Shown piece by piece: positions 15,747-58,240 of a stretch of 64,000 bases of DNA (position 1 is its first letter; each line of letters opens with the position of its first letter). Origin of the DNA: Escherichia phage vb_EcoM-VR5; the sequence record NC_028881.1; one strand, 5' to 3'. The notes beneath the pieces were generated by a model. That model was not told the origin of the DNA and did no database searches. It saw only the letters and a list, made by a program, of their open reading frames with translations. Both the position numbers and the translations under genes were made by a program.

Positions 15747-17795
15747 TTATCTGAATTTTTCCGGAAGGGCATTGATATCAGTCAATGCACACAGGATTTT
15801 ATCAACTTCGTTATCTGAAGCTTCTTTAGATTCTGTAAGGAACCCAGAGAAAGATAATGTTTTGTTTACTGGTTCCAACTTACCGGATTCCAAGAACAAA
15901 TCACCGTCGTAAACTACTTCGCTTTCGGCGACGATACGGTCCAGGTCCATTACTTCACACTCTAACAAGAAACGGTTAAAGGATTTAGACAGGCTAGCCG
16001 TAGTGGTCTTGTTAACTCGCAGTGTAGTACCACGTGGCAACAGAACTTCAGCCTCTTCAGGGTATTCAGACAAACTACCTGGCATAATAACCTTAATCTT
16101 CTCAATACCACGAATAACAAATGAGATATCAATCTTAGAATTACCTTCGGTTTTCAGTGCATTAGTTACTGTCTGGTTAGCATCTTGTGAACGCCAATCA
16201 TCAGAGAATGCATGACCATCAGTATAAGTAGACGAGAAGTCATCTAATGTGATACCCATACCATTGCCGGACATTTGTCCAGGAACGTTACTAAAAATGT
16301 TAGGCTTCAACGAAGTAGAAACATAGTTACGGAAGTAGAATGTACGGCCTGTAATATTGCGACGAAGAGTATTAGAATCACCACCCTGACCACGATAAAC
16401 CGTAGTACCCTTAGGCAAAGTTACACCTTTAGAGAACGCGCTATCAAGTTTCTCAATTTCACCTTCAACAAACTTAATGGAAGTATCCTCATCAGGAGTA
16501 CCAAGCAAGAACGTGTTAATATCATAGAACGAGTTCATACAATATTCTGATACAGCCTGTTTTTCTTCCTTGGTAAGGTCTGCTTCTGGTTCAACGTTCT
16601 GGGCCACTTCATACGAATTGGTAAAAACATCATCAATCATCTGAGTAATAATAGCCATAGGACGTTGAAGAGCCTGGGCCTTAACATCTACATCTACCGA
16701 AGAACCTGCAGTAATTTCACGAACAATTCTTTGCATGATTTCGTACGAGTTTGTAGTATCAAGATTTTTAAATTCTTCAGCCATCAATCTAACGATGTCA
16801 GAAGGGTAATTTCTGGTACGTAGCTTACCTTTAGCTTCGGATAATGCATCCATTAAAGAAGATACTTGAGGTGATAAACCGGAACTAGACGAAATATTAA
16901 TATAAGCCAATTCAGATTGGGTTTTCTTAGCAAAGGTCTTCATAGAGGCTTCAAATGATTCGAATTCTTTAGATTTCTTACCATCTGATTTATATAAAGG
17001 AACTTCGTCATCATACTTAGCAAAGATTTTAGCAGTCTCTGCATCGGCCTCAATATTTTCAGGAGTAACTGCGTATTGAGCCGCAATAGTAGCACGAACG
17101 TTTAATTTAGTACGAGAGATAACAGCCTTATCGGTACGCTTTTCTTCAACCTGCGCTACAGAAGCTACAACGGCTTCAACCTTACTTACGGCTTGGCCAG
17201 TTTTCTTGGAAACATAAACTTCGCCAACTTTAGAATCAACTTTAGTATAAAGGTCAGCATCAATTTCCGGCATGCCTTTGATGTCTTCGATATTCGCACC
17301 ACGACGTACTAAAAGAACGTAAGTATGTTTACCGCTGAACTGGAACATATCATTAACAACTTTAAACTTACCACCTGTACGAGCCATGGCCAAACGAGCC
17401 AATACACGTTGTACAGTAGGACCCTTACCTTTCATTTTCTTAGTAGGGAAACGGAACAGAACTGCATCCATTTTAAGTTTATTTACTTGTTCATATACCG
17501 TATCGAAAATAGTATTCAATGCACCAAGTGGGTCAGAACCAAGTCCACCTTTGAGTTCAGCCGGGGCACCTTTGCTTGACAAACTCATTAGAATAACATG
17601 AACATATTTGTCACCTGGCTTAACCATTTTAACTGCGTCTCCTTGAGACGCATAAGATACCATACGAGCCACAAGGTTATCATTACCTGGTGCTTGGATA
17701 GAGAAAATCTGTGGGATACCGGAACCTGGTTTAAGATTTGTTACTGGATAGTTTTTAGCTGAATCACTATCAAAAACTTCGTTTAAATTTTCCAT
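15747..17795 (-). CDS. alt: Alt-type ADP-ribosyltransferase (paralog A)
   Basis: 682 aa (same as T4 Alt); C-terminal ART motifs present (YRGQ arginine, VSTSL, EAE); N-terminal LNE motif resembling prohead-protease processing sites. Confidence 0.85.
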   Translation of the reverse strand: MENLNEVFDSDSAKNYPVTNLKPGSGIPQIFSIQAPGNDNLVARMVSYASQGDAVKMVKPGDKYVHVILMSLSSKGAPAELKGGLGSDPLGALNTIFDTVYEQVNKLKMDAVLFRFPTKKMKGKGPTVQRVLARLAMARTGGKFKVVNDMFQFSGKHTYVLLVRRGANIEDIKGMPEIDADLYTKVDSKVGEVYVSKKTGQAVSKVEAVVASVAQVEEKRTDKAVISRTKLNVRATIAAQYAVTPENIEADAETAKIFAKYDDEVPLYKSDGKKSKEFESFEASMKTFAKKTQSELAYINISSSSGLSPQVSSLMDALSEAKGKLRTRNYPSDIVRLMAEEFKNLDTTNSYEIMQRIVREITAGSSVDVDVKAQALQRPMAIITQMIDDVFTNSYEVAQNVEPEADLTKEEKQAVSEYCMNSFYDINTFLLGTPDEDTSIKFVEGEIEKLDSAFSKGVTLPKGTTVYRGQGGDSNTLRRNITGRTFYFRNYVSTSLKPNIFSNVPGQMSGNGMGITLDDFSSTYTDGHAFSDDWRSQDANQTVTNALKTEGNSKIDISFVIRGIEKIKVIMPGSLSEYPEEAEVLLPRGTTLRVNKTTTASLSKSFNRFLLECEVMDLDRIVAESEVVYDGDLFLESGKLEPVNKTLSFSGFLTESKEASDNEVDKILCALTDINALPEKFR

Positions 17796-17798
17796 TAT

Positions 17799-19853
17799 TT
17801 ACCCTTGGATGAATTTTTCTGGCATATCATTAAGATTCATACATGATGCTAAAAGAGGTAGTACATCAAACTTAGTTGATTTTACAAATGAGTCAAAAGA
17901 TACAGGGTTTTCGGTAGTATCGAAATCATCTTGATACACAACCAATTCACCGGTTTCCATTAACATGTTTCCATCATATACTACTGACTCTTGAAGCTCA
18001 TCTGATGTCATAACTTCGGCTTGAACTAATTTATTATTAGTTTTAGAAGTACCGTCGTTATAAGAAGCATCTGTTATTTTATTAATTTTGAGCATTAACC
18101 CACGTGGAAGAATAATTTCCATTTCGTTAGAAGGAGCAAGACCTGCACCAGGGAACACCACGTTTATTTTGTGAGCACCTGAAATAGCCCAACCGATACC
18201 AACTTGGTCGTCATTAGACTTAACAAGTCCTTCATCCGATTTGTCTATGGAAACATCTAAACGGACTTCATCAGGCAGAGTACCTACTGAAGCATCTGTC
18301 ATCCAAGTACCAAAAATATTAGGATATAAAGATGTAGATACAAAGTTTCTGAAATAGAATACCTTGTTTTTAACCATTGCTTCGTAAATAGGTGGAATCA
18401 TTTTCTGGGAACGATACAGTGTAATTCCTTCTGGTAATCTATCACCATTTTTAAAAGCATCATCTAAGTTATCAATAGCTTTTTCGATTTCCGGGCCAGT
18501 CAAAATACTAGAACGAACTTCTGGATTGTATATACCTAAAAGTGCATTGTTCATATCTTCATAACCGGAACCAACATACTCACGGATACCACGTTTTTGT
18601 GCTGGAGTATACTGGGTTTCATCTCGGTTATCAACAATAGAGAACATTGTCCAACCGGCAGCCAATGCAAATCCACGAATTTCTTTTTTAATGACCTTAG
18701 TCTTAGCGACGTTCCAAGAGCTTTCAGACAATTCCATGGCTACAGTATAATCTAAATTAGAATGTTTAGCAAAGAATTTTCCTAACCAGGCACCTTTATA
18801 TTCTTCAAGAACTTCGTTTAGTACTGAAGCAAAACTGCTTAATGCATCCATAGACGTTATAGGCTTACCGTGGATTTTTTGGAATGCACGAACTTTAACA
18901 TCATGGTCGACTTCTTTTATTTTGCTTTTAGTTACTATTCCGCTATCGGCAAAGGCATCACCAACACCATTTATATTTGTAACTGTATTAAGAACACTTT
19001 CTAAAGAAAACGATGCGGTAGAAATAGTAGATAATTCGTTAGATTGTGGAATAAGTGGCGCGGTAGCAGGTTTACTTAATTCGGATGCAGAAGCTTCAAA
19101 TTTGGTAAACATAGGTGTTTCAAAACGCGCTGATTCTAAGGATTGCGACATAGCAATAGCACGTCGTGAAATCTTGGTCTTAGTAATAACGGTTTTATCT
19201 GTACGGCGTTCTTCAACCTTAGCAATACTACCTGCAATAGCGGTTTCTTTAGTAACCTGTACACCTTCTTTTTTGCTTACATAAACATCACCAACATCAG
19301 AATCAACTTTAGTATAAAGTTCAGCATTAATTTCTGGAATACCTTTGATGTCTTCAATATTAGCTTGTTTACGGACAACTAAAATATAAGTATGCTTGCC
19401 AGTGAATTCATACATGGCAGGAACTACTTTAAAACGGCCACCAGTTTTCTGTGCAACTAAACGTTGAATAAGGCGCTGTACGATAGGACCTTGTCCTTTC
19501 ATTTTCTTAGTAGGAAAACGGAACATAACCGCGTCCATACGAAGTTTTTTAACTTGCTCGTATACTACATCAAAAATGGTATTAATAGCATCAATAGGAG
19601 TTGCTCCTAAGCCACCTTTTAATTCGGCAGGGGCGCCTTTGGCTGACAGACTCATTAAAATAACGTGAGCATATTTGTCGCCTAATTTAACTTGTTTGAT
19701 AGCATCACCTTCAGATGAATATGACACCATACGTGCTACCAATTGAGACTCAACGCCGCCAATCTTCCAAATCTGTGGTACTTTAAGTTTCGGGTTCAAG
19801 TTTACAGTAGGTAATGTACCTTCAGACTCGAACACTTCATTTAATTGGGTCAT
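17799..19853 (-). CDS. Alt-type ADP-ribosyltransferase (paralog B)
   Basis: 684 aa; N-terminal 230 aa highly similar to paralog A, central region divergent, ART motifs retained (YRSQ, VSTSL, EME). Confidence 0.8.
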   Translation of the reverse strand: MTQLNEVFESEGTLPTVNLNPKLKVPQIWKIGGVESQLVARMVSYSSEGDAIKQVKLGDKYAHVILMSLSAKGAPAELKGGLGATPIDAINTIFDVVYEQVKKLRMDAVMFRFPTKKMKGQGPIVQRLIQRLVAQKTGGRFKVVPAMYEFTGKHTYILVVRKQANIEDIKGIPEINAELYTKVDSDVGDVYVSKKEGVQVTKETAIAGSIAKVEERRTDKTVITKTKISRRAIAMSQSLESARFETPMFTKFEASASELSKPATAPLIPQSNELSTISTASFSLESVLNTVTNINGVGDAFADSGIVTKSKIKEVDHDVKVRAFQKIHGKPITSMDALSSFASVLNEVLEEYKGAWLGKFFAKHSNLDYTVAMELSESSWNVAKTKVIKKEIRGFALAAGWTMFSIVDNRDETQYTPAQKRGIREYVGSGYEDMNNALLGIYNPEVRSSILTGPEIEKAIDNLDDAFKNGDRLPEGITLYRSQKMIPPIYEAMVKNKVFYFRNFVSTSLYPNIFGTWMTDASVGTLPDEVRLDVSIDKSDEGLVKSNDDQVGIGWAISGAHKINVVFPGAGLAPSNEMEIILPRGLMLKINKITDASYNDGTSKTNNKLVQAEVMTSDELQESVVYDGNMLMETGELVVYQDDFDTTENPVSFDSFVKSTKFDVLPLLASCMNLNDMPEKFIQG

Positions 19854-21923: not shown

Positions 21924-22539
21924 CAGCCGTATTATTACGAAGAGATTCGATAGCTGCTATATCGTCCCACGAATTAACCTTTACTGCTAAATTAGGTTTA
22001 AAGTCACGTTCACCACGGGCTAACCAATAAACTTGGATATCCATAAGAACATTAGATGCAGCATCACAGTGGTGAGCCAAATCATCGACATAAAACTTAA
22101 TACGCTTACCATATGTATTTTTAGCTCTTACGAACAGGTCTTCTTTTGATTCTGAATGGCCACACATCAGAATCTCCTTGAATGCACCAGGGAACAAAGC
22201 ATTCAAATTGAATTGTCTATTCAGCAGGGCATCAATTGAGTCGCCTAGCGCAGTCACGGCTACAAAATCGAAGTCTTTTTTGAGCTTGTTGATGTGTTTT
22301 AATGCGTCCATATAAGGAGACAGATAACGAATGAAATCTGACTGATTGTATTTCTCGATTAAACGAGCGCCTAATTCGTTGTCACAATTAAACAGCTCAC
22401 CTGGAGATAAGAAACGTTCGTCCTGAATCATATTCAAAATATGTTCTAAAGGCAAATTATATTTCTGAGCGAAATAAGGCAAGCCGGACTGCCAACTTAA
22501 ACATACTCCATCGATATCTGTTAAGATAACTGGTTTCAT
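21901..22539 (-). CDS. HAD-superfamily hydrolase-like protein
   Basis: 212 aa; N-terminal LTDIDGV matches HAD motif I (DxDG[TV]); later FYVDDLAHH consistent with the metal-binding motif. Confidence 0.55.
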   Translation of the reverse strand: MKPVILTDIDGVCLSWQSGLPYFAQKYNLPLEHILNMIQDERFLSPGELFNCDNELGARLIEKYNQSDFIRYLSPYMDALKHINKLKKDFDFVAVTALGDSIDALLNRQFNLNALFPGAFKEILMCGHSESKEDLFVRAKNTYGKRIKFYVDDLAHHCDAASNVLMDIQVYWLARGERDFKPNLAVKVNSWDDIAAIESLRNNTAVEWVARG

Positions 22540-23003
22540 AATAAATCTCTCAATTTGTTTAGGATGTCGATAAACTCTTTTTCAGTTAGTATTGTATCAC
22601 ATTCTGTAAGGTGGCTTGCCATAGAATGCTTTAAAACTTTACCTTTTGTAGCTTGTAAGGCGTCACGGAATCCTTTGTTTTGGAGCGCTGCTTCAAAATA
22701 TGCACTTGTATACAACTCTTTCCATGCTGCAGAGTATCTTGAAAAGGGAATTCCAAGCCAGAAAAGCGTCCCACGGTCCACAGCTCTTGCATAAGCTCTT
22801 CCAGTTTGTTGTGCGACCAGTCCGGACATCCCAAATATACGTTTTTGTTGTTCATAATTTCTCACCTTGCACCCTTGGAGGAAGCCTTCAAGACCTCCAA
22901 ACTGGATACCATCCATAACAAAAGGCCATTTGGCAAAGTTACTTAATGCACATGATGGCCACGGGAAATTGCTTCTGATTTCTAACTCAGACATCTTTGA
23001 CAC
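22536..23003 (-). CDS. YbiA/NADAR-like domain protein
   Basis: 155 aa; LSNFAKWPFVMDGIQFGGLEGFLQGCK resembles the conserved SNF..WP...DG core of the YbiA (NADAR) family. Confidence 0.5.
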   Translation of the reverse strand: MSKMSELEIRSNFPWPSCALSNFAKWPFVMDGIQFGGLEGFLQGCKVRNYEQQKRIFGMSGLVAQQTGRAYARAVDRGTLFWLGIPFSRYSAAWKELYTSAYFEAALQNKGFRDALQATKGKVLKHSMASHLTECDTILTEKEFIDILNKLRDLL

Positions 23004-23199
23004 TTATAATATCGATATCACACCAATGGCCATAACCTGGTAGACGGTCTTCAACAGATAAACCGCTGACATATTTGAGCATCGTTGTTTTCATTATAAC
23101 AGGTTCAATATCTTGACCGCCTGGGCGAACATCAGTCACACGATAAGTCACTTCGACCATTTCAGTACCTAACAATTTCTGAATCAGTTTCTTAAACAT
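22987..23199 (-). CDS. hypothetical protein
   Basis: 70-aa ORF in the packed minus-strand early cluster. Confidence 0.4.
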   Translation of the reverse strand: MFKKLIQKLLGTEMVEVTYRVTDVRPGGQDIEPVIMKTTMLKYVSGLSVEDRLPGYGHWCDIDIISVKDV

Positions 23200-23200
23200 A

Positions 23201-23395
23201 TTATCCTCGCTTTAAATATTTGATTACAGACAATTCTTGTCCCATGCGTACGTCTTCAGTTCCGTCAACCCACAGGACTGCATAGGCTTCTTTAATTACT
23301 TTACCGTTAATTTTAAAAGCAGGTAAAACCTTTGAAATCATTCCAGGAATACCTATGCCTTTTAACTGGACTGTTTGTGATAAAAATAATTTCAT
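23201..23395 (-). CDS. hypothetical protein
   Basis: 64-aa ORF preceded by the shared TGAGG junction sequence. Confidence 0.45.
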   Translation of the reverse strand: MKLFLSQTVQLKGIGIPGMISKVLPAFKINGKVIKEAYAVLWVDGTEDVRMGQELSVIKYLKRG

Positions 23396-23402
23396 GTTAG
23401 CC

Positions 23403-23705
23403 TCAATATTTCATTTGGAAGCAACGTGGCTCGTCACATTCAATAAAGAACTTACAGTCTGCAGCAGAAATAATGATTCGCTCATCTTGACGGGCATCTG
23501 TTTTGATAGATTTCATATCATAAGACACGTTATCATCTGGTATATAGATTTTATACACGTCGCCATTATGGGCGAAATCAACACGGAACAGCTCTAGACC
23601 TATTAAATCAGTCACAAGACTGTTTATAGCGTAGAACTCATCAAGCTGACTAGTAGGCAAACAATACCATTTACCTTCAGTAAACTCTAACATAATTAAC
23701 CTCAA
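23403..23705 (-). CDS. hypothetical protein with C-terminal FQMKY
   Basis: 100-aa ORF; its last codons plus stop plus SD are near-identical at DNA level to the 3' end of the upstream gene. Confidence 0.5.
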   Translation of the reverse strand: MRLIMLEFTEGKWYCLPTSQLDEFYAINSLVTDLIGLELFRVDFAHNGDVYKIYIPDDNVSYDMKSIKTDARQDERIIISAADCKFFIECDEPRCFQMKY

Positions 23706-23989
23706 TATTTCATTTGGAAGCCGTATGGCTTAACGTCACCGCCATCCATATTTGATGTATTAATTTCGCTGGCATCAACCATGGAAATATCAACATCATT
23801 GCGCAGTTTAACGATTGCTAGAGTATCGCGACCATTTACAGTGCGGAATTCTAGTGGACAAACTACATCAACATAGTTCTTAATGGAATCGCGTGTTGGT
23901 TCACACCCAGCAGGAACATTAGGGCCTTTTTTAGAGAAAACAACTTCACAGAAATTTTTACGAGTATCGAAATAAGTGGTCATAAACAT
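23702..23989 (-). CDS. hypothetical protein with C-terminal FQMKY
   Basis: 95-aa ORF; shares only the 3' terminal cassette with 23403-23705. Confidence 0.5.
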   Translation of the reverse strand: MFMTTYFDTRKNFCEVVFSKKGPNVPAGCEPTRDSIKNYVDVVCPLEFRTVNGRDTLAIVKLRNDVDISMVDASEINTSNMDGGDVKPYGFQMKY

Positions 23990-24003: not shown

Positions 24004-24019
24004 GGAGGCCGAAGCCTCC
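24004..24019 (-). terminator. GC tetraloop hairpin
   Basis: ggaggc-cgaa-gcctcc; identical 16-mer recurs at 62994-63009. Confidence 0.45.
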
Positions 24020-24027
24020 ATTTAAGA

Positions 24028-24393
24028 TTAGATATCAAACTCGTTAAGAACTACATCAAAGATTGCTTCAAGATGTTCAGGTTTAGCTCGGTTACTCAGA
24101 ATATGTCGAATCCAAGTTTTAACTAAGAGTTTACGATTATCACCGTTCCAACAAGGATGAGTGCCTAAATCGCGTTCACGGAAATCATCATCTAGAGCGA
24201 TTTTAAAGTTGGAACCTTCCTTAGTGATTGAAAGAGTGATACCGTTTTCAAATCGCATATAAACGTAGTTAGGAGTCATGCACTGCTCGATTTCACATAC
24301 TGAACCGTTTTCATGTTTCCACAGGCAAATAACTTCAGAAGAACCAGCGATACCATTAGAAACATATTTACGTTCGAAGTTGATGTAGTTCAT
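24028..24393 (-). CDS. hypothetical protein
   Basis: 121-aa ORF with upstream early-promoter cassette. Confidence 0.5.
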   Translation of the reverse strand: MNYINFERKYVSNGIAGSSEVICLWKHENGSVCEIEQCMTPNYVYMRFENGITLSITKEGSNFKIALDDDFRERDLGTHPCWNGDNRKLLVKTWIRHILSNRAKPEHLEAIFDVVLNEFDI

Positions 24394-24437
24394 TTTATTA
24401 TCCTTTGGTTTGTTTTCGTATTATTTGGTACAGGTCT

Positions 24438-24466
24438 ATAATAACACAACCTGTACCAAAGTAAAA
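24438..24466 (-). promoter_or_regulatory. early promoter / PeSL-like cassette
   Basis: Minus strand TTTTAC-(17 nt)-TATTAT embedded in inverted repeat ggtacagg...cctgtacc; 5' flank shared with the cassette at 24834. Confidence 0.5.
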
Positions 24467-24469
24467 CAT

Positions 24470-24802
24470 TTATTTCACAACATTCCAATTTTTCATATCA
24501 AGTTTACCAACTTTTTTCATCTGAGTAATCAGACGTTCGGCACGCTCACGAGCAGTAACATAATAGAATTCACCGATTTTGTTTTCTTCAATACGACCTG
24601 TAATTACAGTTTTCAGTTCGTAAATCCAACCTGTAAAGAAGTTGTGAAGCTCAATAGTAAAGGTGAAATCAGTACCCATACCTTCAGTGGTTTCAACTTC
24701 AATAATATCACCTTCAACTGCTGTCAGGACCCACATGGTTTCTTGATATTCACCGTTGAAACATTTAGCTTTAACAGATGCATTCAGGTTTACAGTTTTC
24801 AT
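24470..24802 (-). CDS. hypothetical protein
   Basis: 110-aa ORF, first gene after the terminator-proximal promoter cassette. Confidence 0.5.
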   Translation of the reverse strand: MKTVNLNASVKAKCFNGEYQETMWVLTAVEGDIIEVETTEGMGTDFTFTIELHNFFTGWIYELKTVITGRIEENKIGEFYYVTARERAERLITQMKKVGKLDMKNWNVVK

Positions 24803-24833
24803 TTTATTCTCCAGTTTGTTTTCGTATTATTTG

Positions 24834-24862
24834 GTACATGTCTATAGTATCATGCCTACCGG
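24834..24862 (-). promoter_or_regulatory. early promoter / PeSL-like cassette
   Basis: Minus strand GTGTAC-(17 nt)-TACTAT overlapping ctatagtatcatg core. Confidence 0.5.
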
Positions 24863-40009: not shown

Positions 40010-40038
40010 TTTATTTTCCTCATGTAGTTGATAGGTCT

Positions 40039-40067
40039 ATAGTATCATGTTTAAAGATATTGTAAAC
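40039..40067 (-). promoter_or_regulatory. early promoter / PeSL-like cassette
   Basis: Minus strand GTTTAC-(17 nt)-TACTAT within gataggtctatagtatcatg core. Confidence 0.55.
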
Positions 40068-40071
40068 TACT

Positions 40072-40341
40072 TTATGAAATTTTATCGAGCCATTTACCAA
40101 GTTTAATCATTTCTTTGGTGGCCTTTTCCATACTTCTGAACTTAACTAATAAAGGATAAGTATCTACACCCATAACTAAAGTGGTTACAAGACTATGCTC
40201 ACCTACAAGCCATAGAGAATACGTTTGAATATCAAGTCCGTAATTTCGGTCTTTATGAACACGTACACCCATCACTTCAAACTGTTTACTGGCTTTTTCT
40301 ACTGCATCCAGGAAATCATCTTTAGTCATATTAAATTCCAA
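40072..40341 (-). CDS. hypothetical protein
   Basis: 89-aa ORF. Confidence 0.5.
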   Translation of the reverse strand: MEFNMTKDDFLDAVEKASKQFEVMGVRVHKDRNYGLDIQTYSLWLVGEHSLVTTLVMGVDTYPLLVKFRSMEKATKEMIKLGKWLDKIS

Positions 40342-40696: not shown

Positions 40697-40724
40697 TTTT
40701 ATTTCCTCATGTTTTGATAGGTCT

Positions 40725-40753
40725 ATAGTATCATGTTCCTAGAGGGTGTAAAC
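40725..40753 (-). promoter_or_regulatory. early promoter / PeSL-like cassette
   Basis: Minus strand GTTTAC-(17 nt)-TACTAT within gataggtctatagtatcatg core. Confidence 0.55.
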
Positions 40754-40805
40754 CATTAAATGCCAAAAAGGGAAGACCGAAGTCTTCCCATTATAAATCA
40801 ATAAC

Positions 40806-57829: not shown

Positions 57830-57863
57830 TTTAATCTCCGATAACCATTTATTTGATAGGTCT

Positions 57864-57892
57864 ATAGTATCATGTTTAAAGCATAAGTAAAC
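57864..57892 (-). promoter_or_regulatory. early promoter / PeSL-like cassette upstream of motA
   Basis: Minus strand GTTTAC-(17 nt)-TACTAT; 40-nt block identical to the cassette at 58188. Confidence 0.6.
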
Positions 57893-57933
57893 TTTATTTT
57901 GAGCTCTTTTTCAAGAGCCCTGGTAAAAATTAC

Positions 57934-58167: not shown

Positions 58168-58187
58168 TCTGTTGTTTTGATAGGTCT

Positions 58188-58216
58188 ATAGTATCATGTT
58201 TAAAGCATAAGTAAAC
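58188..58216 (-). promoter_or_regulatory. early promoter / PeSL-like cassette
   Basis: Minus strand GTTTAC-(17 nt)-TACTAT; tttgataggtctatagtatcatgtttaaagcataagtaaac identical to 57853-57892. Confidence 0.6.
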
Positions 58217-58240
58217 ACTTTTTGCACTAAACCCAAAAAA

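Follow-up and report, generated by a model that had tools for sequence, protein, structure and literature searches.

Duplicated 30.6 gene end around a GoF-type domain gene in a T4-like phage, probably left by short-homology capture at the 30.6/30.5 boundary

Deletions between short repeats are known from T4 rII. The promoter-early stem-loop (PeSL) cassettes of T4-type phages are ORFans flanked by repeated promoter/stem-loop motifs, with an SD site and a start codon at the motif's end, and it is recombination by the phage itself that shuffles them (Arbiol et al. 2010, PMC2839356; Comeau et al. 2014, PMC4122927). For events outside the PeSL system, namely short-repeat indels and short-homology or illegitimate recombination, Albertini et al. 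(1982) is the work cited in Comeau 2014 (PMC4122927). The GoF family, in turn, combines an N-terminal LSm-like domain (GoF residues 1-91) with a flexible linker and variable C-terminal domains (PMC12152347). A literature search found no paper on the particular junction described here, which lies between genes 30.6 and 30.5 of Escherichia phage vb_EcoM-VR5 (NC_028881.1). The window, that is, the whole 64-kb stretch of DNA analysed, belongs to the Tevenvirinae and is of Dhakavirus type: over bases 1-25000 it aligns to ESCO10 with 95% identity and 79% coverage, and in that part its identity to JS98 and JS10 is about 91%.

The genes of this region run on the minus strand in the order 30.8 (24470-24802), 30.7 (24028-24393), ORF A (30.6), ORF B, 30.5, 30.4 (22987-23199) and 30.3 (22536-23003), with 30.8, 30.7, 30.4 and 30.3 named from Pfam/PHROG matches and from the annotation of related records. 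ORF A (23702-23989, 95 aa) is the gp30.6 homologue (phrog_2153, E=3e-43; PF26902 Phage_T4_Y12K, an assignment taken from precomputed tables). It shows full-length homology to that family and keeps its position between 30.7 and 30.5, and a tblastn search with it returned 741 near-full-length matches in phage records, annotated as 30.6. The gp30.5 homologue (23201-23395, 64 aa; phrog_1690) is the usual direct neighbour of 30.6. On the coding strand, promoter-like sites were observed upstream of 30.8 and 30.7 and a terminator after 30.9. No minus-strand promoter-like site or terminator was found between 30.7 and 30.4, and 30.6, ORF B and 30.5 would thus share one early transcription unit. In the 30.7/30.6 interval, the minus strand carries at 24004-24019 a UUCG-tetraloop hairpin, GGAGGCUUCGGCCUCC, followed by UUGAGGAAAAUAUUAUG; contig L009 has, at bases 611-650, a closely similar hairpin plus SD site ahead of the gene for protein P0002, described below.

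A PeSL-like direct repeat of 49 nt (86% identical) also occurs on the minus strand upstream of 30.7 and 30.8, at 24398-24446 and 24804-24852, and holds an early-promoter-like site and the inverted repeat GGTACAGGT...ACCTGTACC. The metagenomic contig L023 has neither 30.8 nor 30.7 and carries a single promoter directly ahead of 30.6, an arrangement which, with these repeats, fits PeSL-mediated gain or loss of 30.8 and 30.7.

ORF A and the adjoining ORF B both terminate in F-Q-M-K-Y and TGA, with a GAGG that overlaps the stop. This common end had been picked out in a sequence-only reading of the locus, which proposed a reused 3' linker or a recombination junction, and the ORF ends, a repeat search and shuffled controls all bear out the observation. 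The direct-repeat search paired 23397-23431 with 23696-23730 at a spacing of 299 nt; when the two gene ends are aligned, 30 of the 35 bases are identical and 22 form an exact run, the 22-mer GCTTCCAAATGAAATATTGAGG, found on the minus strand at 23422->23401 and 23721->23700. Copy 1 (23696-23730, minus strand; exact core 23700-23721) is the 3' end of 30.6 itself and contains the TGA at 23702-23704, the GAGG at 23700-23703 and the spacer preceding the ATG of ORF B. Copy 2 (23397-23431, minus strand; exact core 23401-23422) contains the TGA at 23403-23405, the GAGG at 23401-23404 and the spacer preceding the ATG of 30.5. The distance from GAGG to ATG is 6 nt for ORF B and 5 nt for 30.5. Outside the exact core, the copies diverge (GAGGTTAATT vs GAGGCTAAC).

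A chance likeness of two gene ends has the AT-rich composition in its favour, and nothing else. A 20-mer from the 22-nt core, searched with up to 3 mismatches, has only two sites in the 64 kb; shuffled sequences are expected to hold 0.03 matches, and none of 100 shuffles contained two. Since the same duplicated structure is present in three other sequences as well, coincidence is extremely improbable. No other junction of this type was detected within the 64-kb window.

The window holds further repeats of other kinds. At 1360-2154 there is a long run with a 9-nt period (GGN-NNN-NNN), which is collagen-like (Gly-X-Y) coding sequence with many overlapping repeat families. The segments 17202-17672 and 19269-19739, located 2067 nt apart, are about 75% identical, and in the 17202-19739 region the annotation of related records shows two alt (ADP-ribosyltransferase) paralogues side by side. 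Four 48-nt repeats (40027-40074, 40713-40760, 57852-57899 and 58176-58223), 71-94% identical to the reference copy, contain TATAGACCTATC... and GTTTAC on the minus strand and are probably repeated early promoters.

As to what the shared element does, a promoter or terminator role was rejected, neither signal being present at the junctions, and a role in RNA structure was rejected as well, the fold at the two junctions being not significant (z = +0.24 and -1.08). With these signals absent, the shared element is read as a translational junction.

The same earlier reading had regarded the remainder of the two proteins as different, and had opposed to this a homology along their whole length, which would make the pair an ordinary tandem duplication. 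The difference was confirmed. BLASTP of A against B gave E=13, the profile-profile comparison (hhalign) of gp30.6 (alignment of 10 members) with the B family (7 members) gave a probability of 0.4%, and the two proteins match different PHROGs. By these comparisons, A and B are not homologous. The AF2 models of A (pLDDT 52.5) and of B (pLDDT 61.5) are too weak for a fold comparison, so that the lack of a shared fold is argued from sequences and profiles. A tandem duplication of 30.6, whose second copy has diverged everywhere except at its end, would account for the similar lengths of the ORFs (95 and 96 aa) and for the 299-nt spacing, which is about one gene length. It is nevertheless very unlikely in the light of the BLASTP and hhalign results and of the assignment of B to another family (94% hhalign probability with GoF, distinct PHROGs), and an exact 22-mer beside total divergence is a poor fit to uniform decay.

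ORF B (23403-23693, minus strand) encodes 96 aa when read from its ATG. The mechanical ORF list places its start at a TTG at 23705; the start is most likely the ATG at 23693 (MLEF...), as in its relatives. The body of the gene, codons 1-89 (23427-23693, minus strand), corresponds to a GoF-type N-terminal LSm-like domain. ORF B matches phrog_28157 with E=4e-66 and phrog_622 with E=6e-5 over residues 2-91, with phrog_3710 and phrog_5804 among the weaker hits, and phrog_622 is also the best PHROG of the Tequatrovirus GoF protein (4e-40). A direct hhalign comparison of the B-family alignment with the GoF protein yielded a probability of 94% and E=9e-8 over B residues 3-93. The GoF-type fold is a bent five-stranded antiparallel beta-sheet; the weak AF2 model of ORF B shows a helix and four strands, its pLDDT falling below 50 at residues 84-96. 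Foldseek with this model mainly returned an identical (100%) 96-aa protein from phage vB_EcoM-VR5, with weak hits to T4-like proteins including GoF (E 0.04-0.3). One further candidate relative, P0003 (2027 aa, with 19 GC-rich tandem repeats), was dismissed as a spurious match of the exhaustive HMMER search: its E=2e-17 against B arises from repeated weak matches to ..DERIIISAAD..., and targets with many repeats inflate the E-value in this way.

All relatives of B are longer than B itself: P0002 has 170 aa, P0005 171 aa and GoF 139 aa, the PHROG profiles span 132-193 positions, and the paralogous neighbours of P0002 in L009 have 180 and 156 aa. ORF B is 55% identical to the first 96 residues of P0002, through ...IISAA..FFIECDEP, and P0002 runs about 70 residues past the point where ORF B ends in R-C-F-Q-M-K-Y. 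The relatives align to B residues 1 to about 91 only. Together with the domain layout of GoF, this limit indicates that B comprises nothing but the N-terminal domain and was cut where domain and linker meet; neither a linker nor a C-terminal domain is present in ORF B, which stops 7 residues past the N-terminal domain. In the L009 contig, which comes from a more distant T4-like phage, bases 639-2791 carry three paralogous two-domain GoF-like genes (170, 180 and 156 aa) with 30.8 and 30.7 lying among them, and no recognisable 30.6 is present in the contig; the GoF-like family seems to be expanding in the 30.x hyperplastic region. A dN/dS of about 0.1 in the first 88 codons, calculated over four copies, indicates that ORF B is a real gene whose body is under purifying selection.

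The tail of ORF B has a different origin. The last B codon that can be aligned with the GoF-like relatives is Pro89 (23427-23429), and the exact repeat begins 4 nt further on, at 23422. Codons 90-96 (R-C-F-Q-M-K-Y) and the TGA (23403-23426, minus strand), which lie mostly within repeat copy 2, have no counterpart in the aligned GoF-like relatives. ORF A ends in G-F-Q-M-K-Y-TGA, and in the gp30.6 family G90 and F91 are invariant, Q92 is almost so, and M follows in nearly all members, so that the G-F-Q-M part of the tail belongs to 30.6 by its conservation. As this pattern indicates, the F-Q-M codons belong to 30.6 by origin and not to the GoF family. Copy 2 is accordingly described as a duplicated 30.6 tail: judged from the family alignments and from the searches of the window, the shared end is the 3' end native to gp30.6, which was duplicated once, and not a genome-wide linker.

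The distribution of ORF B was followed through several collections. Among 50,697 phage records it was found in QL01 only, and protein databases comprising billions of proteins contributed a 90% cluster and, beyond it, a 50% cluster. No B came from JGI metagenomes or GTDB genomes, and a profile scan of IMG/VR gave nothing beyond QL01. Four carriers are known, namely QL01 and the window together with two contigs, L010 from ENA and L024 from Logan. The 30.6 gene directly abuts 30.5 in about 700 T4-like phages. In T4, ECML-359, ESCO10 and 11 IMG/VR loci, all without B, 30.6 ends in GF(Q/L)(M/T)RF and its stop overlaps the start of 30.5 as T(A/G)ATG. These comparisons show an ancestral order in which 30.6 is followed directly by 30.5.

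The KY-type junction, ...GGCTTCCAAATGAAATAYTGAGG-5 nt-ATG(30.5), was encountered only in a small group of phages, which includes all B carriers. In the window, L023 and L027 it exceeds the common type by 8-9 nt (..ATGA[AATAYTGA]GG.. vs ..ATGAGGTTCTAATG), and the extra nucleotides set the 30.6 stop apart from the 30.5 start. A comparison with related genomes, a check that had been suggested, uncovered two single-copy empty sites in the metagenomic contigs L023 and L027, where a KY-type 30.6 ending occurs once and 30.5 follows directly, without B. The junction reads ...TTCCAAATGAAATACTGAGGTTAATATG-30.5 in L023 (longer: ...GGCTTCCAAATGAAATACTGAGGTTAATATG) and ...TTCCAAATGAAATACTGAGGCTAGCATG-30.5 in L027 (longer: ...GGCTTCCAAATGAAATACTGAGGCTAGCATG). 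The pattern scan of JGI metagenomes gave L027 as the one true empty site plus three chance matches, and the same scan of IMG/VR gave QL01 only, plus three unrelated chance matches. L027 (OERM01002507.1) has a window-type 30.6 allele without B; its 30.6 is frameshifted and called as the 56-aa protein P0022, which reflects an assembly error or a pseudogene.

When L027 is compared with the window by BLAST, the same 22 nt (L027 bases 619-640) align to both 23700-23721 and 23401-23422, the classical pattern of a 299-bp indel with a direct repeat at either end. The segment of presence or absence may be given as 23401-23699, without strand, its edges being free to slide inside the 22-nt repeat. The single junction of L027 is nearly identical to copy 2 and resembles its flank also, and the spacer of L023 resembles copy 1. 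Both contigs could represent either pre-insertion or post-deletion sites. Thus the reused linker or recombination junction that had been suspected gains support from three sides: A and B are non-homologous, the repeat flanks a 299-bp segment, and the empty sites are single-copy.

The explanation that we consider probable is a capture by short homology of a goF-like 5' fragment at the 30.6/30.5 boundary, by which the junction was duplicated. A KY-type 30.6/30.5 background would have received some 267 nt from the 5' part of a goF-family gene, encoding the N-terminal LSm-like domain only. The joining may have occurred by short-homology (illegitimate or unequal) recombination or by template switching, probably between co-infecting T4-like genomes, and staggered joints would have left the last 22-27 nt of 30.6, with stop and SD, on both sides of the fragment. 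Copy 1 would still end 30.6, its GAGG now serving the ATG of B; copy 2 would give B about six in-frame codons (C-F-Q-M-K-Y) and a stop, and would restore the GAGG for 30.5. With stop and GAGG supplied by both copies, 30.6, B and 30.5 are all predicted to stay translatable in one early transcript. A subsequent recombination or short gene conversion within the tail of B probably raised the identity of the copies, and repeat-mediated deletion should permit the loss of B. It counts against this explanation that the nearest full-length goF-like gene is 55% identical. As a candidate microhomology joint, the AGCCA match in the window immediately 5' of the exact repeat is unsupported, as the other B copies differ there.

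The differences just outside the core, together with the existence of both flank types as empty-site alleles in L023 and L027, would also be expected if the event had taken two steps. In a donor with a goF-like gene upstream of 30.6, a deletion would have fused the goF-like N-terminal domain to the last codons of 30.6, and a later unequal recombination would have inserted this fusion, along with the 30.5 start, downstream of an intact 30.6, so that the repeat copies would derive from two different parental genomes. The full-length B relative in L009 sits in the same 30.x hyperplastic region, which suits this course of events; yet L009, the only known context of the long relative, lacks a recognisable 30.6, the intermediate arrangement appeared in no genome found by the phage, protein, metagenome and IMG/VR searches, and the number of illegitimate events needed is at least that of the one-step capture. 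A two-step origin is rather unlikely.

The four B copies differ in their endings, which read KY* in the window, KYRG* in QL01, KYPGLT* in L024 and KCPGLT* in L010. In L024 and L010, GGGG stands in place of GAGG and the B stop overlaps the 30.5 start as ATGA. The stop and SD part is the most variable stretch among the B copies, the stop being lost in three of the four, and these differing endings solve the same coupling problem, which points to selection for a stop and a start signal rather than for an exact peptide. At the same time, none of the four copies departs from C-F-Q-M-K or from the 16 nt TGCTTCCAAATGAAAT, which leaves room for some selection on the tail itself. The latter invariance, and the position of GAGG 5-6 nt ahead of the next start in each copy, are what would be expected of a selected module whose identity is kept by selection and which would act as a C-terminal peptide signal or as a portable element of translational coupling. 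Against such a module stand the variability of exactly the stop/SD part, with the stop lost in three copies, two of which have GGGG and the ATGA overlap, the insignificant RNA fold (z = +0.24, -1.08), the different junction of most 30.6 genes, and the exact nucleotide identity, which argues for common descent instead of convergence. Maintenance by selection alone is quite unlikely as the source of the shared end, and descent from the captured junction remains the preferred reading.

Comparison of the carriers with their relatives reveals a mosaic. Identity between the window and ESCO10 amounts to 97-100% in 30.7, 30.5, 30.4 and the 30.7/30.6 spacer but to only 74% in the body of 30.6, and the B body of the window agrees with that of L010 at 261 of 262 positions. 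ESCO10-like flanks around a divergent 30.6 and an L010-like B suggest that a patch consisting of the KY allele of 30.6 plus B entered an ESCO10-like backbone; as the identity pattern places it, the right-hand crossover of this patch lies within the first ~25 nt of 30.5. In QL01, the 30.6 body is ESCO10-like (92% identical) and the tail is a hybrid, TTTCAGATGAG joined to ATATTGAGG, from which its left joint would fall inside the repeat.

The differences between the window and L010 are unevenly spread, with 1/262 in the B body and 7/37 in the tail and junction (Fisher p=1.9e-6). The state of the B tail in the window, TATTGAGG, is exactly that of its own 30.6 tail, where L010 and L024 have CCCGGGG and QL01 has CCGAGG. 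From these four sequences (n=4), the near-perfect identity of the copies in the window was probably helped by a short conversion of the B tail by the upstream copy; as an alternative, recombination between phages at a point between B body and tail could have produced the same state.

Two features, the hybrid tail of 30.6 in QL01 and the reset tail of B in the window, hint at a more active role, in which the 22-27 nt tail-stop-SD unit is a reusable recombination site, the intra-operon counterpart of PeSLs. Such a site is unlikely. If it did exist, T4-like phages would repeatedly capture, convert, excise and transfer ORFs or domain fragments with translational coupling kept, and B would be a mobile cassette moving between 30.6 alleles.

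Taken as a single capture, the locus would offer a base-resolved case of how a T4-like phage adds a gene to a tightly packed early operon with translation unbroken. The capture would be one at the level of a domain, and the chimeric gene has been kept under purifying selection. A measurable instability of B, through repeat-mediated loss, is predicted for laboratory-cultivable phages (QL01, VR5).

Among described systems, transposon target-site duplication bears a formal likeness to this locus, as in both the inserted DNA stands between short direct copies of the site that it entered. However, 22-27 nt exceeds the typical length of such duplications and the insert is a gene fragment; a transposon-like insertion was rejected, with no Pfam/PHROG transposase and no terminal inverted repeats, but one weak internal one. 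With the GoF/MotB.1/Frd.2 family (PMC12152347), ORF B shares homology over residues 1 to ~91 and the condition of an early-region Tevenvirinae gene. Unlike all characterised members, it has no linker or C-terminal domain, and it ends in about seven residues taken from gp30.6.

With the short-repeat indels the locus has in common that direct repeats bound the variable segment and that the empty sites have one copy, which aligns to both. The classical cases are deletions, whereas the present repeats most likely arose with an insertion, and their predicted functional consequence, a stop for the new gene and an SD for the next, sets them further apart. The described system nearest to this locus is the PeSL cassette. 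Like it, the locus has a single small hyperplastic-region gene between two copies of a motif ending in SD and start codon, is present or absent among close relatives, and could be gained or lost by phage recombination between the copies. In contrast to PeSLs, the repeat carries no early promoter and no stem-loop (z = +0.24, -1.08); it consists of a coding 3' end, a stop and an SD, is much shorter (22-nt exact core), and the inserted gene sits within a transcription unit, its foreign codons joined to a tail that is borrowed. In essence, this is a known type of event, a repeat-flanked gene gain in the T4-like hyperplastic region, and no new kind of system, by which the PeSL picture of modular shuffling would be extended to junctions without promoter or hairpin.
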